64,000 bases of DNA from a virus: positions 86,726 to 150,725 of the IMG/VR virus record IMGVR_UViG_3300049489_000707, one strand, 5' to 3'. Under the pieces are notes generated by a model. The model was not told the DNA's origin. It ran no database searches and was given only the letters and a program-made list of their open reading frames with translations. Both the position numbers and the translations under genes were made by a program. Within the stretch, counting starts at the first letter, position 1; every line of letters begins with the position of its first letter. Below are positions 32,829-58,392 of the stretch, in pieces.

Positions 32829-33293
32829 TTACGGAAGAACTGCGGCCGTGGGCAACTCGTCGTTGACCTTGGTCTCATCGTCCATCTTGAGGCCGATGAA
32901 GGTGATCTGCACTTCAGACGGCTGGCGGTTGGCCAGGGTCGTGTTGTAGCTCACAGGGCGGCACCGGTGGAACTTCGCGATGGGCTTGCCTGCCGGGTCG
33001 GTGTCCAGACGGTCGAACACGGTGATTTCGATGTACTCGTGGCGCAGCAGCTCGCTCAGGCTGGGCATTGCCGCCTCAGCATGGGGGCCGTGGTCGATGA
33101 CTCGCCAACCAGAAGCGGTGATGTTGATGGCGTCCTGGGCGGTGTACACCGTCTCCACGGGGCCATAGGCACCGAGGATGAAGATGGGGTCGGCCGTGAA
33201 CGTCTGCCCGTAGCTGATGTTGTTGAAGATGCCGACGGGCTTACCCGCCACTGACACCTTCGCTCGGGCCCCGGTCATTACTTTTGCTGGCAT
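32829..33293 (-). CDS. Tail tube protein (154 aa)
   Basis: KVMTGARAKVSVAG, ILGAYGPVE; immediately after sheath. Confidence 0.85.
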   Translation of the reverse strand: MPAKVMTGARAKVSVAGKPVGIFNNISYGQTFTADPIFILGAYGPVETVYTAQDAINITASGWRVIDHGPHAEAAMPSLSELLRHEYIEITVFDRLDTDPAGKPIAKFHRCRPVSYNTTLANRQPSEVQITFIGLKMDDETKVNDELPTAAVLP

Positions 33294-33321: not shown

Positions 33322-35856
33322 TTACGCCGTCTGCGTGACCTGGCTGACCAGGAAGCTGATGGGGATGAAGTAGATGGCGCCTGCGAGCTTGACTTCGAGG
33401 CTGACCACCATGGCCGGGCCGCTGATCTGCACTGACAGGTTCTTGAAGCCCTTGGGAGCGTCGTCGCTGGGGGCGATGAGCTTCAGGCTCATGAAGTCTG
33501 CCATGATGCCTTCGAGGTAGGCCTTGGCGATTCCGGCGCTGACGTCAGCAACCGACTGACCGACGAACGCGGCTTCCATGCGCTGAGCGGTGCTCAGGGC
33601 GATGATGTCGGCCACGTACACAGCCTGGATGCTGTTGAAGACGAAGTTCGAGTCCTTGCCGTAGGTGGTCTGGTCGCTGACCCAGGTGAATCCACCGGTG
33701 AGACTCTTGCGAGCCGGGAGCAGGCCTGCGAGGAGTGCGTCCTCGACCTGGCTGTCGTCCTTGTCCGAGAAGCTGGCGTCGCGCATCAGAACACCCGAGG
33801 TGTTGATGCCCTTGTTCACGATGGCCCGGTAGAACCCGGCCGCCTGCATACCTGCCGCAAGCACCGCGCCCATCCAAGGCTGGAACTGAACCAGCGAGCC
33901 CGAGCTGTTCACCTGCTTGAAGTCCTGGAAGGCGACCGACACGCGGAAGCTGGCCAGGTTGGCAGAGTGAGCCTTCGCGTTGGCGAAGGTGTCCAGCTTG
34001 CTGCAGAAGGCCTGGCGATTCCGGCGCTTCTTCAGGGTGGACATCTTGAGGCAGTGAGACTTGGCGTACGCATTGACCGCGTCGATTGCGTAGTCACTGC
34101 TCGCCTCAGTCAGGCCGTCGGCAATGTCCGAGGCTGCATCTCGGCTGATGAGCGGGACGAGGAAGTTGCCACGAACTGCCGCGAGGGCATCGATGGCTGC
34201 AGTGAAGTCCGCGCCGGAGCTGCCGCCCTTGCTGCCGCCAGACAGGTAGGCGATACCCGTGGTGACCTTGGGGAGGCCCGCGTCCGCCTGTACCTCAGGC
34301 TCGTTGAGCTGCACGAGCACCGAGCTGTCGCGAATCTGCGCGAACATGCGGTAGGCGTCAATCTTCACGCGCCCCGGCTGCTCGCCGAAGTGACCGCAAA
34401 TCTTCTGGGCAACCACGTTGTCCAGGTAGGAGCTTGACAGCTGACCCAGAACTGCGGTACCCACAGAGCAGGAGTAGCCAGTCTGCGAGTTGATGTAGGT
34501 TGCCAGGTCGCTGATGGTGGGGAAGTCCGCCAGCGTGATGCTGAGGTTCCCGCCCGAGCCGCCGACCACGGTGGTCGACAGGGTCGTGTCAGTGATGGTC
34601 ATCTGCGCCGTGGTGCCGAGGTAGCCAATCTTCAGGGCGATCTCGCCGCCTGCAATCAGCTCTTCGCTGATGTTGTCCGTCTGACGATTCACCTGGAGGT
34701 TGGCTCGCTGCTCAGCCGCGCTGGTCAGGAGCTTGGCCGAGCCGCTCTTGCTGACCCAGGCAACTGCGCCCGAGGTGCCGAGCACGAATGCCGTGCGGGA
34801 CAGGAGGTCCGTGCCACCCGTGGTCTCTGCGATTTCCAGGGCCTTGCCAACACCGTCGATGGGGTCGCCTGCCTCGTTGCTGATGGTGACAGGCGAGAAG
34901 GCCTGTGCGTCGGTGGTTGCAGCGATTGCAGCTGCCGAGACGTCCGCCGGGTTGGTGATGGTGCCGATGACGGGGGCAGGGGTGACCTTGCCGGCGTCGC
35001 TGAGCTTGGTGGCTCGGAGGGTGCTTGCGGTGACAGCCGTCACGACGTATGCGCCCACGTTCTCCTGGGATGCGCCCTCGACCACAGAGCCGACCGGGAT
35101 GACGAGGGTGTCGCCGATGACAGGGGCGGTCGACCATGCACCGCTTCGGGTCAGTTCAATGACGGTAGCGCCAGCGCCGCCCGGGTTCGCATCGAGTGCC
35201 AGAGTGCCGCTGGGAGGCGCCCCAACCAAAAGGGTGCGGTCCACACCGCCGGTAGCGATGACGCCCGACAGGGCAGCGATCTGGGCCACGAAAGCCGCAG
35301 GCTGAATGTTGGCGACCGTGGTCATGGAGACGGCCGCGTCACCGTTCACTCGGAAGGTGATGCCGACAGTACCGACGGGCGGAATGAAGCTGAACGAGCC
35401 GGTGCTGGGGACGACCTCGGAGGTTGCTGCAGCGACCTGCCAGTAGATGAGATTGCCCAGCTTGCCGTAGCTGCGGTCCTTCAGGGAGCCGTAGGTGCCG
35501 CCAGCCTGCTTCGGGAGTGAGCCGCTTGCCTTGGTGCTGAGGTTGGTCTTGACCAAAACGAATCGGTTGGGAGAACCCGCGATGTTGGGGTCGTTGGCCG
35601 GAGCTGCCGCGTTGCGGAAGGCGTCCACCAGTGGCCCGCTCTTGTACTTGCTCACGACTGCAGCCAGCTGGTCGGGGCCGAACGAGTTCGACTCCAGGTC
35701 GGCCTCAGAGCTGAATCGAGGGCCAGCATCGGCCTCACCGACAAGCATCAGGATGCCGGTCGCAGCCAGGCCGCTATTGGCGGTCTGCACCTTGATGGAG
35801 CTGTAGGCACCGGGGATGATCAGCGTGCCTGCGTCGGTAACGTACGATTGAGCCAT
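33322..35856 (-). CDS. Contractile tail sheath protein (844 aa)
   Basis: LIIPGAYS N-terminus, YLSGGSKG, conserved C-terminal sheath domain (DQTTY...FNSIQAVYVAD...AIYFIPI). Confidence 0.92.
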   Translation of the reverse strand: MAQSYVTDAGTLIIPGAYSSIKVQTANSGLAATGILMLVGEADAGPRFSSEADLESNSFGPDQLAAVVSKYKSGPLVDAFRNAAAPANDPNIAGSPNRFVLVKTNLSTKASGSLPKQAGGTYGSLKDRSYGKLGNLIYWQVAAATSEVVPSTGSFSFIPPVGTVGITFRVNGDAAVSMTTVANIQPAAFVAQIAALSGVIATGGVDRTLLVGAPPSGTLALDANPGGAGATVIELTRSGAWSTAPVIGDTLVIPVGSVVEGASQENVGAYVVTAVTASTLRATKLSDAGKVTPAPVIGTITNPADVSAAAIAATTDAQAFSPVTISNEAGDPIDGVGKALEIAETTGGTDLLSRTAFVLGTSGAVAWVSKSGSAKLLTSAAEQRANLQVNRQTDNISEELIAGGEIALKIGYLGTTAQMTITDTTLSTTVVGGSGGNLSITLADFPTISDLATYINSQTGYSCSVGTAVLGQLSSSYLDNVVAQKICGHFGEQPGRVKIDAYRMFAQIRDSSVLVQLNEPEVQADAGLPKVTTGIAYLSGGSKGGSSGADFTAAIDALAAVRGNFLVPLISRDAASDIADGLTEASSDYAIDAVNAYAKSHCLKMSTLKKRRNRQAFCSKLDTFANAKAHSANLASFRVSVAFQDFKQVNSSGSLVQFQPWMGAVLAAGMQAAGFYRAIVNKGINTSGVLMRDASFSDKDDSQVEDALLAGLLPARKSLTGGFTWVSDQTTYGKDSNFVFNSIQAVYVADIIALSTAQRMEAAFVGQSVADVSAGIAKAYLEGIMADFMSLKLIAPSDDAPKGFKNLSVQISGPAMVVSLEVKLAGAIYFIPISFLVSQVTQTA

Positions 35857-40496: not shown

Positions 40497-40982
40497 TTAC
40501 TCCTGGTTCAGGCGGTACTCGACAAGGAAGTCCCACAGGTCTTGCGGGGTGACTGCGGTTGGATCCAACTTATCAGCTCCCTTGATGCCAGCCTCCTGGA
40601 GAGCAAGCGTTACAAGCTCAGAACAAATCACAGTCTTTGAGCTATCCCATGGGTTTTTCCACTTTTGCTTGAACCACCTGCCAATCACCGGGAAGATGCC
40701 ACCCAAGAGCCCCGGGTAGTCGTAACCCTCGCCAAGGTACTGCATGACCTTCACCAGGCCCTCGTCGGTCAGTTCGGGCAGTGGGTCGAGAGCCTTGATG
40801 ATGCTGCGCTTCTGGTACCTGCTCATGGGCATCATGACGACCCCCTGAGCCTCTGCCCCGATGTACCAATCGGTACCGTGCAATTCCGTAACAAGGAATG
40901 CGTGGCTGACTTTCGCTTTGGTAATCCATCGAAGGAGTCGTGAGAAAAATCCATTCGTAGTGCTGAAGCCGACGTAGGTCAT
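40497..40982 (-). CDS. Permuted papain-like (YaeF/YiiX, NlpC/P60 superfamily) protein (161 aa)
   Basis: His first (VSHAFL), EAQGV, GYDY, then Cys (ICSELV). Confidence 0.75.
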   Translation of the reverse strand: MTYVGFSTTNGFFSRLLRWITKAKVSHAFLVTELHGTDWYIGAEAQGVVMMPMSRYQKRSIIKALDPLPELTDEGLVKVMQYLGEGYDYPGLLGGIFPVIGRWFKQKWKNPWDSSKTVICSELVTLALQEAGIKGADKLDPTAVTPQDLWDFLVEYRLNQE

Positions 40983-41836
40983 TAGAGGTCCTCGCTGAGA
41001 CAGTAGAAGGTCGCGGTCGCGTACCATCCGCCAAATGGGGTGTCGTGCTGGAGTTTGAGACGGACCTCCATGCCCGCGTCCGCCCTTAAGACGGTGGCGC
41101 TGACGTAGTCCCAGTCGAGTACTACGATGGGTTGGGGGCTACCACGCCAGCCGTTCCCGCCCAGGGCTGGGTAGCTGGGGTAGGACTTGACGGCGTCGTT
41201 CTGGAAGTCGGTCATCGACTTGTAGACGACCGGGTTGGCCAAGGGAATCTTCGTCCCACTGGGGATACCGGGCATGAGCTGAGGAGCGAAGACGTCCACC
41301 AGGCCGTAGGGCTGGAAAGTGACTGAGTCGGTAATCTGTACGTCACCGCTGAACTGCACCTCAGCGAACTCAAGCCGCAAGGCTTTGCCGGCATCAGGCT
41401 TGACGGTGAACTGGCTGCCGTTCTCGTAGTGGTAGGTGACCTTGACAACATCGGCGGGGTCGAGGGCGGACAGGAAGACGATCTTCCCCGTGTTGTAGTT
41501 CACAGTAAAGTCCCCACCGCTGGCGTAGTGCGGGTCTTGCTCCGTCTTCGCGACGTCGTTGACCTTCACTGCCACCCGGTAGCTGAAGCCTCCAGGCGAC
41601 AGGAGGAAGTCTTCCTGACTGCACTTGCCGTGATAGGTGTCGATGACGTTGTCGTGGGCGAGGGAGTAGCTCAGGTGGTCGCCGTCGTCGGTGGCGACCT
41701 CATCCACAACACGAACGCTCTGCTCCACCCAGGTGGTTGGGTCAGTCCAGTCGTGGCTGATGATGGTCTTCTTGGACACATCGGACTTCTCGAAGGCGTA
41801 GCGAGGACGGCCATCTGATGTTTTAGGAACGGCCAT
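40982..41836 (-). CDS. Putative virion protein (284 aa)
   Basis: Coupled in late fibre cluster. Confidence 0.5.
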   Translation of the reverse strand: MAVPKTSDGRPRYAFEKSDVSKKTIISHDWTDPTTWVEQSVRVVDEVATDDGDHLSYSLAHDNVIDTYHGKCSQEDFLLSPGGFSYRVAVKVNDVAKTEQDPHYASGGDFTVNYNTGKIVFLSALDPADVVKVTYHYENGSQFTVKPDAGKALRLEFAEVQFSGDVQITDSVTFQPYGLVDVFAPQLMPGIPSGTKIPLANPVVYKSMTDFQNDAVKSYPSYPALGGNGWRGSPQPIVVLDWDYVSATVLRADAGMEVRLKLQHDTPFGGWYATATFYCLSEDL

Positions 41837-44215: not shown

Positions 44216-45559
44216 TTAGGCTTTCTTGCCGTAGTCGTGGACCCGAACTTCGAGGTCCGTCGCGTTCTTGGCGAAGCCGAGGCGGATGGTACGGTCACCA
44301 CCGCCCAGGGCGGCGTAGAGCACCGGAGCGCCACCTGCGCCGAGGTAGTAGGGCACGTTCGCCGTTGCACCCGACAGGGCGCCTGCGACCACACCCATGG
44401 TCACAACCTCAACCGGGTTCGGGGAGGTCACAGTCTCGCGTGCCACACCGATGATGCGGGCCTGGGCGTCCACAGAGGGTGCGCCAGGAGCCACAGTGTT
44501 GTTGCCCGAGATGTACACGCCATCGCCGAGGTCGGTGTTGGCCGAGGTGGTCCAGATCTGCACGCTGTTGCTGTGGAAGTGCAGTGCCGAGGCGTCGCTG
44601 TCTGCACCAGCGGTCAACGTGTTCAGGTTGGCTGCCGAGACATTGGCAGTGGTGGCCACATCGTTCACCAAGAACGCCGAGGGAAGCCCAACGACCTTAA
44701 GGCCGTCAGCGTCCACATCGAGAGTGTTCGGGGTGTCGTCGATTTCCAGAGCGAGACCGGCCGCGAGGCGCTGAATGCCGCCTGCAGGATCGACCTTCGC
44801 GCGGAGCTGACCAGCGTCGCCCGAGGTGTCGAACTCAAGGCCCGAAGAGCCGCCGCCGTTGCCAGCGCCCTGGGCGTCAGCGTCGGTGTCCAGCTCAACG
44901 TGCAGAGTGTTGCCGCTCTTCACGATACCGGAGCCGGCCACGATTGCGCCAGTACCAGTGAACTGAGTGAACACGAGGTTGGTCGTATCAACAGTGATGG
45001 GGTCGTTGGTGGTGAGCACCCAGCCAGTATCGCTGTTCGCGGTACCTTCTGCGATGAACACTGCCACGCCAGCAGTGACTTCGGCGTTCTCGTCGCAGTC
45101 AGTCGCGCGGGTCAGCACGAAGGGAGAGCCGCCGGAGCCGAGGTCGGTGACCACGTAGATGCCGTTGTCGTCCTGGGCTGCCTGGTCCTTGACAAGGACT
45201 CGGTTGCCGTTGGCGACAGCCACGCCGTCGACAGTCAGTGCGCCGTTGGCGTCTGCGGTCAGGGTCTTGCCGATGCCGGTGCCGGCTGCGGTCACAGCTG
45301 GGAGAGCTGCGGCAGTAGCGAGGCGCACCGACTGCTTCCAGTCGAGACCTGCTGCGTACGCCTGAACATAGTCCCGGTTGACGGCGTCAGTGCCGGCAGT
45401 GGGAGCCGCGACGCCAACAATCCGCTGCGAGCTTGCGTCGAATGCAACGCCAGAAACGCCTACTGCGGTAACCTTACCGAGCGACAGCTCGTCAGTTGCC
45501 GCCTGCTCCTCGGTGTAGCCCTCGGTGGCGTTGAGAAAAGTGAACTTACGAAGTGCCAT
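44216..45559 (-). CDS. Head/tail fibre or decoration protein (447 aa)
   Basis: DWKQSVRLAT...LTVDG...NRVLVKDQ...NGIYVV...LTRATD module common in phage fibres. Confidence 0.7.
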   Translation of the reverse strand: MALRKFTFLNATEGYTEEQAATDELSLGKVTAVGVSGVAFDASSQRIVGVAAPTAGTDAVNRDYVQAYAAGLDWKQSVRLATAAALPAVTAAGTGIGKTLTADANGALTVDGVAVANGNRVLVKDQAAQDDNGIYVVTDLGSGGSPFVLTRATDCDENAEVTAGVAVFIAEGTANSDTGWVLTTNDPITVDTTNLVFTQFTGTGAIVAGSGIVKSGNTLHVELDTDADAQGAGNGGGSSGLEFDTSGDAGQLRAKVDPAGGIQRLAAGLALEIDDTPNTLDVDADGLKVVGLPSAFLVNDVATTANVSAANLNTLTAGADSDASALHFHSNSVQIWTTSANTDLGDGVYISGNNTVAPGAPSVDAQARIIGVARETVTSPNPVEVVTMGVVAGALSGATANVPYYLGAGGAPVLYAALGGGDRTIRLGFAKNATDLEVRVHDYGKKA

Positions 45560-46836: not shown

Positions 46837-47641
46837 TGAGAATCTGGTCCCTGATGCGAGTCTCGAACTCCTTGAGGGCCCAGTCGGCCGCCTCGTCCAA
46901 GAACTTCTTCGCCTCCAAGCCCGGGTGAACCCAGCGCCCCTGCCCCTTCATCTTTGATGACGCGATGCGAAAAGTCATGATGGACTTCTTCACTGACTCT
47001 TTGCCCTTGGCGTCCTTCACGTTGCTCTGGTAGACTCGTACCCCCTGAAGATGTGGGATGCCTGTCGCCCCTTGCTTGACTGCGCCGATCGGCCCGTGGC
47101 CAGACCCAGCGCCTGGTGCGGTCTTCACAGGCTGCTTCATGATGTCGAAGGAGTGCAGGAGCCCCGTCTTGGGCTTGCCATCGGCCCCCATCTCCAGCTT
47201 CCCGTAAGGAATCTTCCTCTTCTTCATCTCCGACTTGATGGTGTTGGTCAGAGTGTTCTGCGCTGGGGTTTGCTGGGTAGCGCCTTTCTTGTGTTCGAAG
47301 GGCACCACGATGTAGCGGGAGCCGTCCTTCGCAGTCTTGGCCTTGGGGGATTTGAGGAGGCCGTCGAGCATGTCCATGTTGGGCTTGATGCCCTCCTCAA
47401 TGAACATGGCGTCCTTGCCCAGCTCAATGACCCACGTGTCAGCATCGACCTGCTTGAAGCTCAGGGCGTTGATGTATTTCTCGCGGGTGCTGTGGAGCTT
47501 GGCCTGAACCTCTTCGAGGATGTGCGCGTGGGTCTGGGCAGTCAGGTCCCTGGCCGCGTCGCTCATGGCCTTGTGGACTGACTTGTCGAAGCCCTTGACC
47601 ATCGCGATGATGGGTCCCAAATCTAGGTTGAAATAGATGAT
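46814..47641 (-). CDS. Virion morphogenesis/neck-type protein; start codon uncertain
   Basis: QAKLHSTREKY...IEEG...MLDGLL...WVHPG; best SD (GGAGG) precedes ATC at 47641; first ATG is 47602. Confidence 0.6.
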   Translation of the reverse strand: MIYFNLDLGPIIAMVKGFDKSVHKAMSDAARDLTAQTHAHILEEVQAKLHSTREKYINALSFKQVDADTWVIELGKDAMFIEEGIKPNMDMLDGLLKSPKAKTAKDGSRYIVVPFEHKKGATQQTPAQNTLTNTIKSEMKKRKIPYGKLEMGADGKPKTGLLHSFDIMKQPVKTAPGAGSGHGPIGAVKQGATGIPHLQGVRVYQSNVKDAKGKESVKKSIMTFRIASSKMKGQGRWVHPGLEAKKFLDEAADWALKEFETRIRDQILISVVGGF

Positions 47642-48123
47642 GACAGCCTCCGTTGAGCCGTTCTGACTCGATGGCAATTTGAGCAGACAAGCTCGCACTT
47701 CTTCAGCTCTTCCAGGAGCACTTCCATTCTGTAGCCGCGATCAACAAGTACGCAGATGCCGGCACGCTTTGTTCCTCGAACATGATCGAAGTCCATGGCC
47801 ACTGCAGGGAACCTCCCGTGACAGTCGGTACAGGCCCCCGCTTTGAGTCCGTCCACAAAACGACGTTTCATGGCTTTCAACTCAGATAGGCGGGCCTTGA
47901 TTAGCTCTCGCTTTTCCTTACGGTACTGAGCAGCCAACTTCAGACGCTCTTGTCGAGAACCAAGATAAGTCTTACGGCTGATCTCTTTGGATCTTTCTGG
48001 ATTCTTTTGAACCCACTCATCGTGCTTTGCAGTAGAACAGGCCCGACAGTAGGAGTAGCCAGACGGCCTCGATGGCGTGGCTGGTAGGGCGGGCTCTTTC
48101 TGGCATTTTACGCAAATCTTCAT
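47623..48123 (-). CDS. HNH homing endonuclease (166 aa)
   Basis: N-terminal CVKC...CRAC; CTDCH, MDFDHV, CELVCSNCHRVRT; start at ATG 48123, 6 nt after late motif. Confidence 0.9.
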   Translation of the reverse strand: MKICVKCQKEPALPATPSRPSGYSYCRACSTAKHDEWVQKNPERSKEISRKTYLGSRQERLKLAAQYRKEKRELIKARLSELKAMKRRFVDGLKAGACTDCHGRFPAVAMDFDHVRGTKRAGICVLVDRGYRMEVLLEELKKCELVCSNCHRVRTAQRRLSSSIST

Positions 48124-48129
48124 GCCAGT

Positions 48130-48136
48130 AAGATTA
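48130..48136 (-). promoter_or_regulatory. Late promoter motif TAATCTT
   Basis: 6 nt before HNH ATG. Confidence 0.75.
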
Positions 48137-48143
48137 AGACAGA

Positions 48144-49547
48144 TCAGCCCCCAGGGTTGCGGCTCGAAGTCGGAGTCCCATCGGGGGCCATGACGATACC
48201 GGCCCTGACCTGGCGCCACTTCGTCTTGCCCGTTGCTGGGTCCTGAACCTTCAGCTCGCCACCTTCGTGGGCTGCACTGGGGCCTGGGTCAACCTGGGAG
48301 CCAACTGGGAGGGTCACCTGGTGACGACCGGTCTTACCGGCTTCGAGGGCCGCCTTGTCCATCTTGCTGTAGTAGCTCGGGTCTTCGGTGAGATGGTCCT
48401 TGGCGACCTCTTTAGCTCGGGCTTCATCAAGGCCGTGCTCTTCCATCTCCACCCTCATCCCCTCAGCCAGCTGCTCGGGGTCGAAAGAAGAGTCGGAGGC
48501 GTCGTCCCCCTTGCCACCCGGCATCAAGTCCTTGCGCAGAATCTTGTTGGCCCAGTGGTCCTTGTGGTCGTGGCAATAATCTCCGGTGATGGTGCGCTGG
48601 CAACGACGCTCGCCGAGCTTCCATTTACACCGCCCCACCTTGCCCTCCGCCTTCTGGACTTCCTCTTCTTGCTGAGGCTGTCCACCATCTCCCATGGCGC
48701 TTCGAGCCATGGCAATCATCGCCTGGACAACGCCAACCACCGACTGGTACATCTCGGGGTTGCTCTGTTTCATCTGCTCAAGCGCTGGCGCATTGGCTCG
48801 GACATTCTGGAGCACCTTCACGACCTGCTCGCGCACGCCATCGACCACACCAGAGGGCTTGCCCGCCGGTTGCTGCTGGTCCTTCTGGGCTGCTGCCAGC
48901 TGATGGAAGAGCTGCTCGAAGTCGGCCGCCGTGGGCTTGGGAGCTTCAGCTGGGGCTGGAGCATTGGCGATCTGGCTGTTGAGGGCCTCGTTCTCGCTGT
49001 GCTCGCTTCCTTCAGTCGGTGCGGCTGGGGCGGCTGGAGTGCTACGACTGGCCCCCGCGAAGCCTGCGTTGGAGCCAGCGTTCATGGCGGGCGCCGCCTT
49101 CTGCAGGCCGCTGTCGGGATTCAGGTACTCATCCTGCAGCTTCTCGCTCTCGGTCTTCTCTTTGGCCTCGGCCAGAATCTCGTCGACCTCTTCGGTGTAC
49201 AGCTGGATGCGGTCGCCACCCTGGAGCTTCGCTGCCATCAGACTGCGGTCGGCTTCGGAGAGCTTGGTCCCGACACCCACGCTGCAGGTGCTACCCACGG
49301 CCCCCTCGTACTGCTCGCGGATGCCGGGCAACTCACTGAGGTAGTCGGCCTCAATCTCAAGACGACCCTCGTCGCCACCCACCCCCACGACTTTGCCACC
49401 GTGAGACTCTGCCCAGCTGGCCCAGATACGGTTGCCTCGGTCGATAGCCTGGCCAAGCCTTGCTACTTCCTCAGGATTGTCCGCAAGACTGGCCCTGCCG
49501 ACCATGCGGCCAATGTGGTCACCATCGAAAGAGACGAAGAGCTTCAT
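48144..49547 (-). CDS. Late protein (467 aa): N-terminal mCpol (minimal CRISPR polymerase)-like domain, linker, DUF5661-like domain
   Basis: FVSFDGDHIG, GVGGDEG, TCSVGVG, EADRSLMAAKLQG; DPEQLAEGMRVEMEEH...AKDHLTEDPSYYSKM; start at ATG 49547, 6 nt after late motif. Confidence 0.8.
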   Translation of the reverse strand: MKLFVSFDGDHIGRMVGRASLADNPEEVARLGQAIDRGNRIWASWAESHGGKVVGVGGDEGRLEIEADYLSELPGIREQYEGAVGSTCSVGVGTKLSEADRSLMAAKLQGGDRIQLYTEEVDEILAEAKEKTESEKLQDEYLNPDSGLQKAAPAMNAGSNAGFAGASRSTPAAPAAPTEGSEHSENEALNSQIANAPAPAEAPKPTAADFEQLFHQLAAAQKDQQQPAGKPSGVVDGVREQVVKVLQNVRANAPALEQMKQSNPEMYQSVVGVVQAMIAMARSAMGDGGQPQQEEEVQKAEGKVGRCKWKLGERRCQRTITGDYCHDHKDHWANKILRKDLMPGGKGDDASDSSFDPEQLAEGMRVEMEEHGLDEARAKEVAKDHLTEDPSYYSKMDKAALEAGKTGRHQVTLPVGSQVDPGPSAAHEGGELKVQDPATGKTKWRQVRAGIVMAPDGTPTSSRNPGG

Positions 49548-49553
49548 GGTGAG

Positions 49554-49560
49554 AAGATTA
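49554..49560 (-). promoter_or_regulatory. Late promoter motif TAATCTT
   Basis: 6 nt before mCpol ATG; back-to-back with early promoter. Confidence 0.75.
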
Positions 49561-49563
49561 CCG

Positions 49564-49593
49564 TTGACAGGCGCTGTCGAGAACAGATATGGT
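49564..49593 (+). promoter_or_regulatory. Early promoter (leaderless)
   Basis: TTGACA-18-TATGGT, ATG 6 nt downstream. Confidence 0.7.
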
Positions 49594-49599
49594 TGGGAC

Positions 49600-50478
49600 A
49601 TGAAGACGGAACAACTACTTACCCTGATTGCCATCGCCAACAACGCCACCCTGGCGGACATCCTGGAGGCCTGCGATGAGGCCAAGCGCCAAGGCCCATG
49701 GACGCCGGCCTCAGGTGGCACTGAGCAGATCTTCCGGGCTCGCACCGGCAAGCGGCTCCTGTACTGCTGGCAACAGACCACGGGCAAGCATGCCTACCTC
49801 GACGTGGACTCTGATATCATCCTCAGCGACGAAGAGGCCCGGATGCACCTGAACATGTACTGAGGGCGTCATGAGCAAGAAAAAGCCATTCATGGGGAGG
49901 GACTACCTCTTGCTCAAAATCATCGGCGGTGCTACAAAGGCTGGGGTAGAGCCCGACCGCAAGAAGGAAGCCAACAAGACCGCAGCGAGAGGAAACAAGA
50001 TGAACAGAGCAGACCGACAGAAGCCGCAAGAGAACGGCATGATGGTGGCGGAGTTGAAGCACCTGCGTGCCCAGGTGAAGGCGAAGGACGAGAAAATCGC
50101 CAAGCTGACCGAGGAGGTCCAGGAGCTTCGCGCTCAGGTGAACCTGACAGCCATGCTCGACCCCACCACCGAAGAGAACAAAGCGCTGGCGGAAGAGGCC
50201 AGGAAGTGGGCCGTGAAGTCGGGGCTAATCAGCACGACGGAAGAAGCCAAGAAGTGAGCCTCCAGTTTACCCGAGCCGAGTTCGTCGAGTGCCCTACATG
50301 TAGGGCCAAGCCTGGCTCGCCGGCCCTGTGTCGCGAGTGTCTGGAACGGCGAGAGCTGCATGGGGTACTTCACAGGCTCCAGAGCTGGTTCCCGAACCAG
50401 GCCATGCACCCCTACATCAAAATCTGCACCCACTGTAACGGAACCCCCAACCCATCTTGCCCGGAGCACGGGCGCTGA
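49600..50478 (+). CDS. Three early ORFs (49600-49863, 49871-50257, 50254-50478 Zn finger)
   Basis: Promoter-defined start 49600; coupling. Confidence 0.7.
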
Positions 50479-50493
50479 GGTAGAATCAAGCAC

Positions 50494-51282
50494 ATGACAC
50501 CAATCATCATCATCGGCGGCGGAGCAGGAAGCGGCAAAGACACGGTAGCGGAGATGCTCTGCCGGGGACGCAATGGGGTGATGATCGCCCAGGCCGACCC
50601 TATGAAGCAGTTCGCCCAGCAGGTGGCAGGCTTCACCACAGACCAGCTGTGGGGACCTTCCTCCAGCCGCAACGCTGAAGACCCGCGCTTCAGGCCCGGC
50701 ATGGAGGGGGAAGTGAACTGGGAGCTGATGGCCGGGCAAGTGCTCTTCAGCGACCTCGCACCCAGCTGGCTGAACTTCATCGGAGCACACGACGCCTTCC
50801 CGGTACTCAAGAGCTGGTTCGACAAGCTCCGTGCCGACTTCAAGGACCGCACCCTGACCCCACGAGCGTTCCTTCAGACCCTTGGCACCGAGTTCGGTCG
50901 TACCGTCTCCCGTGACGTCTGGAGCAACCTGGCCATCAGCCAGGCCCGAGAGCTTCTCGTGGGTGGCGCCAGCTACGACCGCGAGAGAGGACTTCAGAAG
51001 TCAGACAACCCTGGTCACAACTTCGTGGTCATCACCGATGGCCGGTTCCGCAACGAAATCCTCAATGTGACCTCGATGGGTGGCAGAGCCCTGAAAGTAG
51101 TCAACCCGGTCGACGAAGGTGCGGCGGTCGAGAGCGCCGGCATCAAGGGTCACGCCTCAGAGGCCGAGCTGAAGGGCATCCCTGACGGCTGGTACACGGA
51201 TCGGCTCATCAACGACAAGCGCCAGGGTCTTGTGGTGCTGGCGGCCAACGTGGAGGCATACGCCCGAGGCTGGGGGCTGTAA
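50494..51282 (+). CDS. Deoxynucleoside monophosphate kinase
   Basis: IGGGAGSGKDT, AQADPMK, PRAFLQTLGTEFGR, VITDGRFRNE, HASE. Confidence 0.9.
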   Translation: MTPIIIIGGGAGSGKDTVAEMLCRGRNGVMIAQADPMKQFAQQVAGFTTDQLWGPSSSRNAEDPRFRPGMEGEVNWELMAGQVLFSDLAPSWLNFIGAHDAFPVLKSWFDKLRADFKDRTLTPRAFLQTLGTEFGRTVSRDVWSNLAISQARELLVGGASYDRERGLQKSDNPGHNFVVITDGRFRNEILNVTSMGGRALKVVNPVDEGAAVESAGIKGHASEAELKGIPDGWYTDRLINDKRQGLVVLAANVEAYARGWGL

Positions 51283-51884
51283 TGAAGAAGCTCCGCATCC
51301 TCATCGACATCGACGGCATCGTGGCAGACACCATGCCGCACTGGCTCCAGTATCTCGGGGACCAGACGGGCGTGTACGCCAAGATGGAAGACATCACGAT
51401 GTACGACCTCTCAAGGTGCCCTCCTCTGACCGAGATTGGCCCGGGGGTCGTCTTCGGAGTGCTCCAGGACGTAGGCTTCACGATGGGGATTCCCATGATG
51501 GAGGGGGCCGCCAACGTCCTCAAGAACCTCATGGACGACGGCCACGAGGTCTACCTGGTCACCGCCCGCAGTGGTGCTCAGCACATCGCCGAGACCTACG
51601 AGTGGGTCAAGGCAACGATGCCGTTCATCGACACCAGAAGGCAGCTCATCTTCTGCTACGAGAAGCATCTCATCGCGTGTGACGTCATCATCGACGACCA
51701 AGCGGCTACGCTTCAGAAGTACAAGACCACGCACCCGAAAGCGTTGGCCTTGGGCATCAGGTACCTCTACAACGACCACCTGGATTGCTGTTCCAACCCT
51801 GTGGACGTGACGCTGGTCGAGTACGGCGACACCGCCTGGGCCACCCTTTACCAGCAAATCATGCTGCACGCGGAAGAGCCATGA
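51282..51884 (+). CDS. 5'(3')-deoxyribonucleotidase (NT5C, HAD fold)
   Basis: ILIDIDGIVAD, LVTAR, IIDD. Confidence 0.9.
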   Translation: MKKLRILIDIDGIVADTMPHWLQYLGDQTGVYAKMEDITMYDLSRCPPLTEIGPGVVFGVLQDVGFTMGIPMMEGAANVLKNLMDDGHEVYLVTARSGAQHIAETYEWVKATMPFIDTRRQLIFCYEKHLIACDVIIDDQAATLQKYKTTHPKALALGIRYLYNDHLDCCSNPVDVTLVEYGDTAWATLYQQIMLHAEEP

Positions 51885-52447
51885 CCTGCATCGTCGGCCT
51901 CGTGGTGGGCGACCGTGTCGTCATCGGCGGAGACTCCGCCGCTGGCACCCATGGCTGGGGTATTCAGGCACGGGTCGACTCCAAGGTCGGCAACGTCGGT
52001 GAGTTCGTGTTCGGCTTCACCGACAGCTTCCGCATGGGCCAGGTACTTCTCTACCGCTTCACCCCACCGCCGATTGAAGGCGAACTGATGGCCTACATGG
52101 TGGGGCCGTTCATCGACGAGCTGCGTCGCACCTTCCGAACTGCCGGCTACGCTGAGCGTCAAAACGAGCGCGAGTCTGGGGGCACCTTCCTGGTGGGCGT
52201 TCGAGGCCGACTCTTTCGCATCTCCAGCGACTACCAGGTGGGCGAGTCGAAGGACAGCTATGATGCCGTGGGCTGTGGAGCTGACATCGCCCTGGGTAGC
52301 ATGTACTCCTCAGGCCTCGCCATCGAGCAAGCCCCGAAGGCTCGTATCCTGGAGGCGTTGTCGGCCGCTGAGCACTTCAGCGGTGGCGTACGTAGGCCAT
52401 TCAACATCGTTGTGACCCCGCTTGCTTCTCTCCCCGACCCACTGTAA
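51881..52447 (+). CDS. Ntn-hydrolase, proteasome-beta/HslV-like peptidase
   Basis: M-TCIVG N-terminal Thr nucleophile, GGDS, SKV, AVGCG...ALG. Confidence 0.85.
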   Translation: MTCIVGLVVGDRVVIGGDSAAGTHGWGIQARVDSKVGNVGEFVFGFTDSFRMGQVLLYRFTPPPIEGELMAYMVGPFIDELRRTFRTAGYAERQNERESGGTFLVGVRGRLFRISSDYQVGESKDSYDAVGCGADIALGSMYSSGLAIEQAPKARILEALSAAEHFSGGVRRPFNIVVTPLASLPDPL

Positions 52448-52457
52448 GGTACAAGAC

Positions 52458-53298
52458 ATGCCAGACAACACTCCAGAAGACCCGGTGCAGCTCACACAAG
52501 AAGAGACCGAGGAGGTGGCCATGGCCCTGGGCCATATTCTCATTGCCACCACAGCAGAGTACTGTCATCAGATGGGACTGTCGATGGCCGACCCCAACAC
52601 GCAACAGCTCGTTCGTGTAGTCCTGATGGGACTGCTCAAGACGTTGCCGGGTAGTGAACAAGCTCCTGAAGCAAAGGCCTGACCATGCCGTACATGATCC
52701 GCAATGGCCAAGGCCTCTTCAGTACAGGCGGCGGTCATCCCAGCTTCCGAGAAGATGGCAAGATGTGGAAGACCCTCGGCCAGGTCAAGTCGCACCTCGC
52801 CATGTTCCGTACATACCAGGGCGTCAACCAGGTCCCCGCTGACTGGGAGGTCGTCGAGGTTCAACTGAAGCTGTTGAGCGGCGAGAACGCCCGTGCGCTG
52901 GTCCAACCTCTGGCCGACAAACAGGCTGAGCGCCAGGCTCAGTACAAGAACCGATTCGAGAAAGAGCGGGCTGACCGGGAGAAGGCGGAATTCAAGCGTC
53001 TGCAGAAAAAGTACGACCCAGCTCACGCACCGGGGCACGAATGAACGAGAATCCGTGGAACACGCCGAACTTTCCCAAGAATTTCAGTCAAGACGAGCTG
53101 AACGACAAGCGTCGTGCTTCCATCAACTGGCTGCGCGAGAACTACTCGCACATCTGGCGACACCCGAGGCTGAGTGCCCACCGGAAGGCCGGTTTCCTGG
53201 CTGCGTGCTGCGACAGCCGTCGGTGCTACCTGGCCACTCTCGACCTGCCTGAGCGGGTTGAACACATCTACGTTGCACTGGTTCAAGAGGGTTTGTAA
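52458..53298 (+). CDS. Three small ORFs (52458-52682, 52685-53044, 53041-53298)
   Basis: Coupled ORFs with codon bias. Confidence 0.65.
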
Positions 53299-53306
53299 TG
53301 GTGCCC

Positions 53307-53382
53307 GCCTCCGTAGCTCCAATGGCCAGAGCGTCCAGAGTAATGACCTGGAAGGTTGTGGGTTCAAATCCCACCGGGGGCA
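53307..53382 (+). tRNA. Atypical tRNA, 9-nt anticodon loop (central AAU, Ile-like); CCA not encoded
   Basis: Acceptor GCCTCCG/CGGGGGC+A, D arm GCTC/GAGC, anticodon stem TCCAG/CTGGA, loop AGTAATGAC, T arm GTGGG-TTCAAAT-CCCAC. Confidence 0.8.
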
Positions 53383-53385
53383 CTG

Positions 53386-54018
53386 ATGAGTGACTGCGAT
53401 CATCGTTGGCTGCTGGTACCTGGCGGTGAGGTTGGTGGCATCATGGTGCTTGGCTATTGGGTCTGCGTCAAGTGCAACCGCAAGGGCCCCAGCAGTCGAT
53501 TCAAGTGCCCAGGCAAGTCCGTCTTCACGGAGGAAACATGAGCGAAGTCAAAGACACACGAGAAGAGACGAAGTCCCGCCGTTGGCTGGCCATCTACGGG
53601 GCGATGATTGCTGCCGAGTGCATGGAGTACCGACTGCGCACCACCTGCTGCGTTTCAGAAAAGATGATGCGCGGCATCATGGAAGAGGCTGCGGCCATCG
53701 CCGACCTCGAAATCGAAGCCTCACAGGACAACGATGAAGTCCTCTAAGCCCTTCACCAAGAAAGAGCTGGCCTGGGCCCGCAAGCAGGCGAAGCTCCTCG
53801 GGGTCAAAGATGGCCCCGAGGCGTTCCTGGAGATGCGCTGGTCAGAGGTTACGAAGCTTGCTGCAGAGCGGGGTCTGACGTGGGTGATTCAGGACTTGCC
53901 AAATCCGGCCGGAGGTACTCTTCCTGCCATCCCACTGTCACCCACTCCTTCTGCTGCGCCCGGTCGTAAGGCTCGACGACCTTCTTCGTCACGCCCAAAG
54001 AGTCGCCGACGTACTTGA
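53386..54018 (+). CDS. Three small ORFs (53386-53541, 53538-53747, 53734-54018; last one has doubtful 3' end)
   Basis: Coupled ORFs; last overlaps a convergent gene by 170 nt. Confidence 0.55.
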
Positions 54019-54651: not shown

Positions 54652-54658
54652 AAGATTA
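54652..54658 (-). promoter_or_regulatory. Late promoter motif TAATCTT
   Basis: Overlaps endolysin TAA stop; upstream of Pth2 leader. Confidence 0.6.
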
Positions 54659-55288
54659 CGGTTCGTCAACCGGCTTCGACTCATCTGCCGGCGGGGGGAG
54701 GACAACCGCAGGCTTCGCCGCTTTCGGCTTCACGCCCCAGGTGGCTCTCTTAAGCCAGTTCTTGCGAAACTTGGCCAGGGCTGGGTTGCGGACGATGATC
54801 CGCTCGTAGTAGGCGGCCATCTCATCGCCAAAGGCCCTCACGAAGTCCTCTGGATTGCAGGCGTTGATGGCGGCAAACGACTTGTCGCCCAGGCTGCCGT
54901 CGACCTTCAGTTCGGGACTTGCGCCCAGGGTGTTGCAGGCTCGCTGGGCGAACTCCGCACAGCGCTTCGGGCCCATGTTCACGGCCGAGTCCATCATCTT
55001 GGTGGCGGCGGTCTGGTCGACCACCCTGCCGTAACCCCACTGGTTCCAGAAGTACTTCCGGTACAGGCTCTCGCAGGTCGCTCTGCTGACAGCCTTCAGG
55101 CACCCGGGGAAGAAGTTGACATGAGGCAGGCCGAGGTCCTGAGGGGTCAGCCCGAGACGCTTGATAGTGAGCATGGACCAGCCCCAGACGGTCTCACCAC
55201 CCGGATCAGCCGGGTCGTCGACCCAGAAGTTGGTGGGGGTGCCCTCGTGGGCCATGATGACAGGAATCGCTGCTTCAAAAGTGCTCAT
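54656..55288 (-). CDS. Endolysin, glycoside hydrolase family 108 with peptidoglycan-binding domain (210 aa)
   Basis: IMAHEG, DDPADPGGETVWG, MDSAVNMGP, VDGSLGDKS, FRKNWLKR. Confidence 0.9.
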   Translation of the reverse strand: MSTFEAAIPVIMAHEGTPTNFWVDDPADPGGETVWGWSMLTIKRLGLTPQDLGLPHVNFFPGCLKAVSRATCESLYRKYFWNQWGYGRVVDQTAATKMMDSAVNMGPKRCAEFAQRACNTLGASPELKVDGSLGDKSFAAINACNPEDFVRAFGDEMAAYYERIIVRNPALAKFRKNWLKRATWGVKPKAAKPAVVLPPPADESKPVDEP

Positions 55289-55293
55289 TGTTC

Positions 55294-56211
55294 TTACCCT
55301 GGCTTCAGGTTGTCCTGGTGGAGGTAGTCTTCGTGGTACTGATTCAGCTTCGGGTTCCACCACTTGACCTCGTAGTAGTGTCCCGGGCCGTCGATGTCGT
55401 TGTCTTGGTACTGGGCCGACGTCACCTTGCCCTTCCAAGGGACGGCCTGCTGGTCGACGTGGGTCACGGTCTGGCCCGGCTTGTACAGCTGGCCGCCGGC
55501 CTTCAGCTTCGCCTTCTTGGCCTCGGTCTCACGCTGTCGAGCCAGCTCGTGAAAGCCTGGGTCGCTCATCATGGCGTGATGGGCGTCTGCGAGAATGCCC
55601 TCCACCTTGGTGCGAGCCAGCTGCTTGCGAGCCTCGATTTTGGGGACGATCGACGACACGCCGTCTGCTACCTGGGGGCCTGCAGCTGCAGTCTCTTTGA
55701 CGGCCGCGTCCCACCCTGCCGGGACCTTGGCTGGGGTTGCAGCTGGGGCAGGTTTAGCCGCCGGCTTCTTGAAAGGAAGCACCTTGCCGTCTGCCTTAGC
55801 CAGCTCGCCCTTCTTCTCTTCCTTGGCCGGCTTGTCCTGGAGCAGGAACGCATCGCCTCGATGCGGCTTGAAGCGGTAGAAGTTCTCCTGCTTATCGGCC
55901 AGGCCCTGAATCTCGTGGGGAACCGGCCCCATGGGGTCAAGGCCCAACTCCTTCATGTGCAGCTGGTACATCATGCCGTGCTTGTGGCCTTCCTCGTGGC
56001 TGCCTGCCGCCTGAGCTGCCTTGAGCCCCTGCATGTGGTACGCTGCTGCCTCACGGTGCTTGTCCTGCTTGTACTCGTGGTGAGCGCGGTGCTCGGCGTC
56101 TGGCCGGGCCATGCGGTGCTTGAACTCGTAGACTGCCGCCCTGGATTCCAGGTCGTGCTTGTCTTCGTCCTTGGCAATCTTCCGACCGTTCCAGCTTGGT
56201 GCGTTATCCAT
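55294..56211 (-). CDS. Head-associated protein (305 aa), His-rich N-domain and SH3-like C-domain
   Basis: LESRAAVYEF...EAHRAH-like motif; ELAKAD linker; YKPGQTVTH...YYEVKW. Confidence 0.6.
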   Translation of the reverse strand: MDNAPSWNGRKIAKDEDKHDLESRAAVYEFKHRMARPDAEHRAHHEYKQDKHREAAAYHMQGLKAAQAAGSHEEGHKHGMMYQLHMKELGLDPMGPVPHEIQGLADKQENFYRFKPHRGDAFLLQDKPAKEEKKGELAKADGKVLPFKKPAAKPAPAATPAKVPAGWDAAVKETAAAGPQVADGVSSIVPKIEARKQLARTKVEGILADAHHAMMSDPGFHELARQRETEAKKAKLKAGGQLYKPGQTVTHVDQQAVPWKGKVTSAQYQDNDIDGPGHYYEVKWWNPKLNQYHEDYLHQDNLKPG

Positions 56212-57521: not shown

Positions 57522-57528
57522 AAGATTA
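57522..57528 (-). promoter_or_regulatory. Late promoter motif TAATCTT
   Basis: Overlaps upstream TAA stop; 16 nt before ATG 57505. Confidence 0.7.
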
Positions 57529-58392
57529 CCTCGGCCCAAAGCCACCATCTTCGGGCTCAGGGGTTTGTCGGGGGCTCTCGGGGCCCGAGTCTTTGTTCTT
57601 GGGGTCTCGTCGTGCTTGGTCGTCGTGGCTCTCGTTGAGGAACAGGAACTCTCGGTTGAGAAGAGCCTGCTGAGGCATGCGAACGAGGGTTCGGTCGTCG
57701 TTGATGGGCGACTCCACCTGGGCCACGCGAATCTCGTGCAGGAGCCGGGCGCAGTACCAGAAGGGCCGGTAGCGGTAGCGAATGCTGATGACAGCGCCCC
57801 GGCCCGTCTCCAGGTCGTCGATGGGGCGTTTGCCGTTGGGCAACCAGTTCACTTGCCCATTCTTGAGGCAGAAGTCTTGTCCTTCCTTGTAGGAATCACC
57901 ACGAGAGTCCACCAGATTTTCAACGGTCACAGCGGGGAATGCCAGGCGCTCGGTCCCGCTCTCGTTGCATCGGCTCAGCTGCCACGTGGGCACTGTGATA
58001 GACTCTTCGTTGAGGTAGAAGCGGTCGAACGGGGCAAGGTAAAAGTCTTTACCTTCCTCGTATTGGCGCGGGAAGCTGGCTGTAAAGCTCGCACCGTCCA
58101 CAAAGCCAACATCCCGCAAATCCTGCTTGTTTTGGTTCCCGACGAGCAGTGACTTGATGCAGCCGGCCTTGCTGTAGAGGTAGCCGTTGCTGCAGCCGGC
58201 GTGGTCTTCATGAGGCCTGCGGTTGTCGTCCAGGTCGGTCATCCCTACTGGACAGCGAAGGGCCACGTAGTGGACCAGCTGAACGCCGTGGCTACGAATG
58301 GCCTGGTCAAAAGCCTCAGCGTCAAAGCTGACCTGGACCTCACGATGGTCGATGTTCAACGTCTCAACTGGGCTGCGGCCGTTCCTTGCCAT
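57526..58392 (-). CDS. Head-tail connector/neck protein (288 aa)
   Basis: FDQAIRSHG...ALRCPVG...CSNGYLY; SIRYRYRPFWY; late cluster. Confidence 0.6.
   Translation of the reverse strand: MARNGRSPVETLNIDHREVQVSFDAEAFDQAIRSHGVQLVHYVALRCPVGMTDLDDNRRPHEDHAGCSNGYLYSKAGCIKSLLVGNQNKQDLRDVGFVDGASFTASFPRQYEEGKDFYLAPFDRFYLNEESITVPTWQLSRCNESGTERLAFPAVTVENLVDSRGDSYKEGQDFCLKNGQVNWLPNGKRPIDDLETGRGAVISIRYRYRPFWYCARLLHEIRVAQVESPINDDRTLVRMPQQALLNREFLFLNESHDDQARRDPKNKDSGPESPRQTPEPEDGGFGPR

Follow-up and report, generated by a model that had tools for sequence, protein, structure and literature searches.

An mCpol palm domain at the head of a modular late protein in an Mx1-like phage, and a large family of phage proteins with intact and motif-less copies

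Descriptions of minimal CRISPR polymerase (mCpol) have so far been confined to a rare enzyme of bacterial defence, and the presence of mCpol in a virus raises the question of what a phage would do with a domain of this kind. The question is posed by a 64,000-nucleotide (nt) stretch of IMG/VR virus record IMGVR_UViG_3300049489_000707 (positions 86,726-150,725 of the record; hereafter the window), in which an open reading frame (ORF) of 467 codons plus stop, on the minus strand at 48144-49547, begins with an mCpol domain. A first-pass annotation of this DNA had proposed a late, probably virion-loaded protein whose cyclase is released from a head polyprotein and injected to counterfeit a host immune signal. 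The present analysis demonstrates that the 467-aa protein is a modular, mCpol-headed late protein, and leans modestly towards an accessory role in which a competent mCpol is most likely packaged, cut at the junctions between its modules, and active on nucleotide signalling. No description of a phage-encoded mCpol was found in the literature on mCpol and phages.

Residues 1-122 make up a true mCpol whose active site is intact, and neither a GGDEF nor a Cas10 domain, because the Pfam score, the fold match to OptS (the mCpol enzyme of the bacterial Panoptes system), and the placement of the catalytic aspartates all agree. Pfam PF18182 (mCpol) matched aa 4-116 at 36.8 bits, or 40.6 bits when aa 1-125 were searched alone, against a gathering score of 26.4 bits, and positions 1-113 of the 114 in the model were covered. 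The GGDEF profile PF00990 gave no match in the 467-aa protein even at E<=10, the Cas10 palm2 hidden Markov model scored under its cut-off, and neither HD nor other Cas10 domains were found in the protein. A weak PADLOC match to CARF_HEPN_mCpol was also obtained, and the solved OptS/mCpol chains 9nwn and 9mnr were matched by phmmer at E ~2e-3. In an ungapped alignment, D8 and D59 fall on D6 and D57 of KpOptS, which are its catalytic, metal-binding residues (PMC12657218). The AlphaFold2 model, built with 110 homologues, reached a predicted local distance difference test (pLDDT) value of ~97 over aa 1-125. When it was searched with Foldseek, the top matches were the OptS structures 9mnr, 9pd0 and 9nwn, with a template modelling (TM) score of 0.84-0.85 and a root-mean-square deviation (rmsd) of 1.7-1.9 A over 119 columns; ranks 1-6 were all OptS structures (TM 0.77-0.85, rmsd 1.7-2.9 A, 119-125 columns), and GGDEF (TM ~0.5, rmsd 3-5 A) and Cas10 ranked below them. 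The motifs quoted in the first-pass annotation were all located (D8/D10 in FDGDHIG, GGDEG at aa 57-61, SVGVG at aa 89-93, AAKLQG, and LQKA at aa 148-151), and its view that the domain is an mCpol whose GGDEG loop does not belong to a canonical GGDEF enzyme was borne out by both the profile searches and the predicted structure.

That the N-terminal domain is an active cyclase is a well-supported prediction. When two copies of aa 1-125 were modelled together, the homodimer score was 0.37 compared with 0.02 for the best control; it passed a mark that 21 of 30 proteins with a solved paired structure, and none of 23 solved as single chains, attain. The predicted interface takes in aa 32, 35-36 and 57-60, the equivalents of the base-contact and catalytic-loop residues of OptS. 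One base-contact residue differs (D36 in the phage domain versus N34 in KpOptS), and therefore the product is not predictable and may differ from that of OptS.

The gene was taken to start at the ATG at 49547, because most homologues begin with MK[LV][FY]V and because of the spacing to an upstream TAATCTT, which is exactly 6 nt. Longer ORFs with a TTG start at 49787 or an upstream ATG, as well as an antisense ORF on the plus strand (48267-49679), were rejected on the same grounds. No Shine-Dalgarno sequence was present between TAATCTT and the ATG. The degenerate form YAATCTW occurs 27 times in the window compared with 9.15 expected (none of 100 shuffles reached 27), mostly ahead of minus-strand late genes, so the gene has a late motif of its own, as had been claimed, and it is the first of a late operon behind this motif.

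Behind the cyclase, the full-length AlphaFold2 model resolved separate modules on flexible linkers (predicted TM score 0.38), whose positions are given in Table 1. The modules are divided by three L/V/M-x-K-A junctions, around which the sequence is otherwise only weakly conserved: the motif [LIVMFA]-x-K-[SAGT] was present at junction 1 in 104 of 110 family members, at junction 2 in 85, and at junction 3 (at aa 394 or 398) in 100. In the alignment of these 110 members, long insertions were found almost only at aa 302, 336 and 394. In the C-terminal module, ten columns (P414, G416, K433, W444, G450, G457, S461, S462, R463 and P465) are near-invariant. Among 76 members scanned for domains, mCpol was detected in 60, DUF5661 in 25, GNAT in four and ART-PolyVal in one. 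Longer members have additional GNAT domains, and GNAT at least lies within the tail. The DUF5661-like module noticed earlier in the source protein is present, just over the threshold, and DUF5661 was not found in the literature searched. One relative (P0114) carries the backbone without mCpol, and the gene upstream of it is unrelated. The helical module had no match in PDB, BFVD or ESM Atlas. Similarly, nothing informative was obtained for the C-terminal 290 aa from a PDB profile search, from Foldseek against PDB, from PHROG scans of 76 members, or from ESM Atlas by features and shape, and only uncharacterised phage proteins were matched in BFVD. A single match to phrog_1289 ("portal protein", E 0.0015) was rejected because none of 75 relatives reproduced it.

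Packaging is indirectly suggested by late co-expression with virion genes, by the modular design with a cargo slot, and by the junction motif, which recurs in the major capsid protein. In six phages (the source phage, Myxococcus phage Mx1 and four complete relatives), the capsid protein has an invariant L-x-K-A 11-14 residues from its N-terminus, with variable sequence upstream and a conserved A-[LM]-E-A-G-N downstream. A maturation cleavage site would be expected to look like this, which supports, short of proof, cutting after L-x-K by the prohead protease and a release of the cyclase in this way. Besides, an ART-PolyVal domain in one relative ties the backbone to the class of polyvalent proteins (PMC5512222). 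Virion loading and cleavage of the mCpol-headed protein thus appear plausible, and the earlier proposal of a polyprotein stands in part: the conserved junctions fit it, but the C-terminal 290 aa match no known virion protein, either in sequence or in fold. As a separate observation, the first ~50 residues of the capsid protein resemble segments in ORFs of 1259, 1297, 808 and 339 aa in four of five relatives, which may represent a shared assembly or targeting segment.

A second palm-type cyclase, which the first-pass annotation had not noticed, is encoded in the head module. Directly downstream of the giant prohead protease, outside the window (G000:C1, ~2921-4160, minus strand), lies a canonical GGDEF protein with a RIGGDEF loop and a DGNDF metal site, which is a homologue of the Mx1 "nucleotide cyclase" WNM70324.1. 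The source phage, Mx1 and the five complete relatives all have it, and in some of these relatives it is fused into ORFs of 808-1367 aa. Two palm-type cyclases among the particle genes therefore point to a broader manipulation of cyclic nucleotides, and the possible targets widen to general cyclic-nucleotide signalling. The same GGDEF gene lends some weight to a different explanation, in which the mCpol-headed protein is not packaged and acts late in the producing cell, for example together with the phage GGDEF, on cyclic di-GMP or cyclic di-AMP physiology of the host or on rival phages; surface, motility, lysis timing or superinfection exclusion would be the targets. Late-type expression agrees with this explanation, as does the retention of the canonical GGDEF in the head module of all these phages, and Iyer et al. 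(2017, PMC5512222) suggested roles of this kind for the GGDEF domains of phage polyvalent proteins. However, modules in a row, divided by conserved junction motifs and including a cargo slot, are seen more typically in proteins that are packaged and processed, and no phage-encoded SAVED receptor domain was found in the genome (a weak negative, as the SAVED control search was also empty). We consider an unpackaged role unlikely.

The family to which the protein belongs is very large. In an exhaustive profile search, 309 representatives of clusters at 50% identity reached E<=1e-30, and 1307 were found at the looser E<=1e-3. The best 150 representatives all have mCpol at or near the N-terminus and are 300-1300 aa long, except for a few short, probably fragmentary entries. 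Among the 123 new representatives in these 150, the acidic residues are kept in 118, and the C-terminal module of the source protein is present in only 30, which indicates that the cyclase has been joined to several different tails. In addition, a scan of genome contigs identified one phage-like contig in a metagenome-assembled genome.

The catalytic motifs have been lost independently at least four times, with faster evolution of the domain afterwards. D8, D10 and D59 are kept in 72 of 112 full-length N-domains and not kept in the other 40, which include the copy of Mx1 and those of very close relatives of the source protein (P0015, P0016 and P0023). On the maximum-likelihood tree, motif change needs eight events, at least four of which are forced by well-supported branches, and the motif-less lineages are found on long branches. 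In 33 intact N-domains the mean column identity is 69%, with D8, D10, G58 and D59 invariant, compared with a whole-protein identity of ~40%, so that the domain is the best-conserved part. At matched C-terminal divergence, intact N-domains share 62% identity with the source N-domain and motif-less ones 42%. Such a pattern agrees with purifying selection on catalysis in lineages with intact motifs, and it agrees better with an accessory function that is lost time and again, as expected in an arms race, than with a structural role that is essential. The protein could nevertheless serve mainly in the structure or assembly of the head-to-tail region, with the mCpol fold as an oligomerisation or binding module and any catalysis vestigial; retention of the domain in the 40 members that have lost the motifs would be explained in this way, the gene has the same late gene as its constant neighbour, and the backbone occurs without mCpol too. 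In the source clade, by contrast, the catalytic and substrate-binding motifs are invariant in the best-conserved part of the protein, and the relaxation of constraint after motif loss is a signature of selection on catalysis, which leaves a purely structural role rather improbable, and a little more so than action in the producing cell.

The reading that we modestly favour is that of an accessory late protein with a competent, most likely packaged cyclase. From the observed identity and intactness of the domain, the modular architecture, the position in a late operon and the selection pattern, we infer a scheme of enzymatic activity, packaging, cleavage and target pathway as follows. By analogy with OptS, the mCpol would dimerise, with an active site built by both copies, and would turn nucleoside triphosphates into a cyclic di- or tri-nucleotide constitutively. 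Tethered to the helical module, a swappable cargo slot and the C-terminal module, it would be produced together with virion proteins and most likely be carried in or on the particle. The prohead protease would cut at the three junctions, and the freed cyclase might then target host cyclic-nucleotide signalling, or immunity based on nucleotides, in the infected (or the next) cell.

Several points weigh against this scheme. Catalysis is dispensable, since approximately one third of the orthologues, including that of Mx1, do not have the catalytic acidic residues. The NCBIfam mCpol model NF033576 scored 28.7-33 bits, under its cut-off of 40, and the phage clade is diverged from the bacterial seed sequences of this model. 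The homodimer score could partly stem from solved OptS structures that the prediction model had learnt. Cleavage at L-x-K-A is proposed from conservation only, the protein shows no fusion to MuF or to a portal, by which packaging of polyvalent proteins is usually recognised, none of its C-terminal 290 aa shows a detectable relationship to any solved or predicted virion protein, and the genome announcement of Mx1 contains no virion proteomics.

The more specific proposal of the first-pass annotation was that the injected mCpol tops up or counterfeits the guard nucleotide of Panoptes (2',3'-c-di-AMP or cyclic triadenylate, cA3), or saturates host receptors with a non-activating nucleotide; the phage could then deplete the signals of CBASS (antiphage systems that signal through cyclic oligonucleotides) or of type III systems without tripping the Panoptes guard. 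The domain is a member of the family of OptS, with OptS as its closest fold, and very little nucleotide is enough to keep Panoptes effectors off (PMC13577387), so even a modest supply could have an effect. It is also known that a CBASS/type III-B island of M. xanthus stops phage Mx4 and not Mx1 (PMC11506125). However, Mx1 carries a motif-less copy, and its immunity to this island cannot come from this enzyme. The published mCpol turnover of ~1 per hour is too slow to flood a cell, which argues against the claim of receptor flooding, and D36 in place of N34 suggests that the product may differ. A gene for Tad2 (PF11195) was not found in the genome, nor was Acb2 (PF13876), the latter being a weak negative because the Acb2 control search was likewise empty. 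Spoofing of Panoptes is one speculative possibility among several: that a particle-loaded, protease-released mCpol forges the guard nucleotide that keeps Panoptes effectors off, or desensitises CBASS or type III receptors, appears quite improbable, and is the least probable of the explanations considered here. If it were true, this would be the first viral counter-defence that forges a host immune signal instead of destroying or sequestering it, and repeated catalytic loss would follow hosts without guard systems.

The source is a large soil phage, an Mx1-like myovirus with a record length of 168,933 bp, and its genome is syntenic gene for gene with Mx1. The shared order runs through terminase, portal, giant prohead protease, GGDEF protein and capsid protein, followed by giant Nudix/kinase multi-enzyme proteins, unknown genes, the mCpol-like gene, a phrog_16819-like gene and tail sheath. 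The phrog_16819-like partner, which had no PDB match by profile, is just downstream on the same strand in 20 of 20 related loci. In the source phage an HNH gene with its own TAATCTT stands between the two; it looks like a recently inserted homing endonuclease, because a close relative (L008) has no HNH gene and there the mCpol gene and its partner are adjacent. Neither CARF, SAVED, 2TM-beta nor cas domains were detected by Pfam and PHROG scans of ~30 flanking ORFs, in agreement with the earlier statement that no effector or cas gene is nearby. A megablast search of the region against GenBank phages gave no match.

Some additional features of the genome were observed. Just upstream of the mCpol gene, the minus-strand late block is broken by a plus-strand cassette (49600-54018) encoding a deoxynucleoside monophosphate kinase, an NT5C-type 5' nucleotidase and small unknown genes, and this nucleotide-metabolism cassette is not found at the corresponding position of Mx1. 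Among the late genes, a 176-aa protein (40497-41027, minus strand) matches phrog_1128 (enoyl-CoA hydratase/ClpP-like fold) and may be a second, ClpP-type protease or a scaffold-processing enzyme. The start of the record (1-655) recurs at 168278-168933 in non-identical copies, and the two ends each hold part of the capsid gene; a circularly permuted or terminally redundant genome of ~168.3 kb is probable.

Table 1. Features of the mCpol-headed gene and of its genome. Positions refer to the window, except for the capsid gene, which is given in contig coordinates.
Feature	Position	Strand	Remark
Whole gene, 467 aa + stop	48144-49547	-	mCpol-headed modular late protein
Late-gene motif TAATCTT	49554-49560	-	6 nt before start codon
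mCpol palm domain, aa 1-122	49182-49547	-	Pfam match, predicted fold, OptS alignment
D8	49524-49526	-	Metal-binding aspartate of mCpol domain (by alignment)
D59 within GGDEG	GGDEG 49365-49379	-	Metal-binding aspartate (by alignment)
SVGVG	49269-49283	-	mCpol domain motif
Junction 1, LQKA (K150)	49095-49106	-	End of cyclase unit
Disordered low-complexity linker	48936-49094	-	pLDDT <50
Conserved SEHSE motif inside linker	48993-49007	-	Family consensus
Conserved helical module, aa 205-285	48693-48935	-	Helices pLDDT 87-93; kept across family
Junction 2, VQKA (K299)	48648-48659	-	K299 >=90% conserved
Variable cargo slot, aa 301-395	48363-48647	-	Family insertions cluster here
CCCH knuckle: C307, C316, C325, H326	48558-48641	-	In cargo slot
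DUF5661, aa 358-398	48354-48476	-	27.4 bits vs threshold 27.0, barely above
Junction 3, MDKA (K398)	48351-48362	-	K398 >=90% conserved
Beta-rich C-terminal module, aa 399-467, ends SSRNP	48147-48353	-	Conserved
HNH gene's own TAATCTT	48130-48136	-	
HNH homing-type endonuclease	47623-48123	-	phrog_2255 E 6.6e-23; between conserved pair
Partner gene, phrog_16819-like, 262 aa	46814-47602	-	E 9.5e-19
Tail sheath	33322-35856		PHROG scan
Virion-protein PHROG matches	32829-33293 and 57526-58392		
Head-decoration or fibre-like protein	44216-45559		
Endolysin	54656-55438		
Major capsid protein	G000:C1:1-1056	-	L-x-K-A near N-terminus, also relatives L031-L034

Among known systems, the closest counterparts of the phage domain are the OptS/mCpol enzymes (KpOptS, VnOptS and the type II Cst mCpol), which have the same minimal palm fold of ~120 aa and the same two metal-binding aspartates, and form a homo-oligomer with a composite active site, which for the phage domain is a model prediction that could partly stem from solved OptS structures. 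Neither OptS nor the phage mCpol has a sensor domain, which implies constitutive activity. On the other hand, sequence identity is only ~20-24%, the phage loop reads GGDEG whereas that of OptS is degenerate, and the phage mCpol is fused to a 345-aa modular tail in a phage late operon, whereas OptS is a stand-alone protein of ~120-130 aa in bacterial defence islands. Unlike in Panoptes, no 2TM-beta or CARF-TM effector is adjacent in the ~30 flanking ORFs. GGDEF (PF00990) and the Cas10 palm belong to the same palm superfamily and share a GGD[DE]-type loop, and the phage domain is ~40 aa shorter.

The only relative in culture is Mx1, and its protein WNM70340.1 (hypothetical, 468 aa) is a syntenic orthologue of near-equal length with the same C-terminal module and the same position upstream of the phrog_16819-like gene and tail sheath. 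It differs in that identity is only 27-33% and its N-domain is motif-less (SIDHLEG and DLGAVG), so Mx1 probably cannot make the nucleotide. Together with this copy, the series of intact and motif-less orthologues offers ready comparative controls.

In polyvalent proteins, which belong to phages and conjugative elements, a single polypeptide combines unrelated domains (Iyer, Burroughs, Anand, de Souza and Aravind 2017, PMC5512222), and the same is seen here, where mCpol, a CCCH knuckle and DUF5661 are combined in the source protein and GNAT or ART-PolyVal domains occur in relatives; the giant multi-enzyme proteins of the source phage come from this late region as well. GGDEF domains were described in such proteins with a proposed interference with host nucleotide signalling, but mCpol was not mentioned (PMC5512222). 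The phage protein also differs from this class in having no MuF, portal or other recognised packaging domain, and in being small, with a single recognisable enzyme on a backbone that is a new conserved scaffold.

With at least 309 clusters at E<=1e-30 and 1307 at E<=1e-3, viruses may account for much of the diversity of mCpol. Should the domain be active, phages would make immune-type cyclic nucleotides besides degrading or sequestering them, which would open a new and testable side of the arms race over nucleotide signalling, and the conserved L-x-K-A junctions may define a prohead-protease cleavage code in this phage group.

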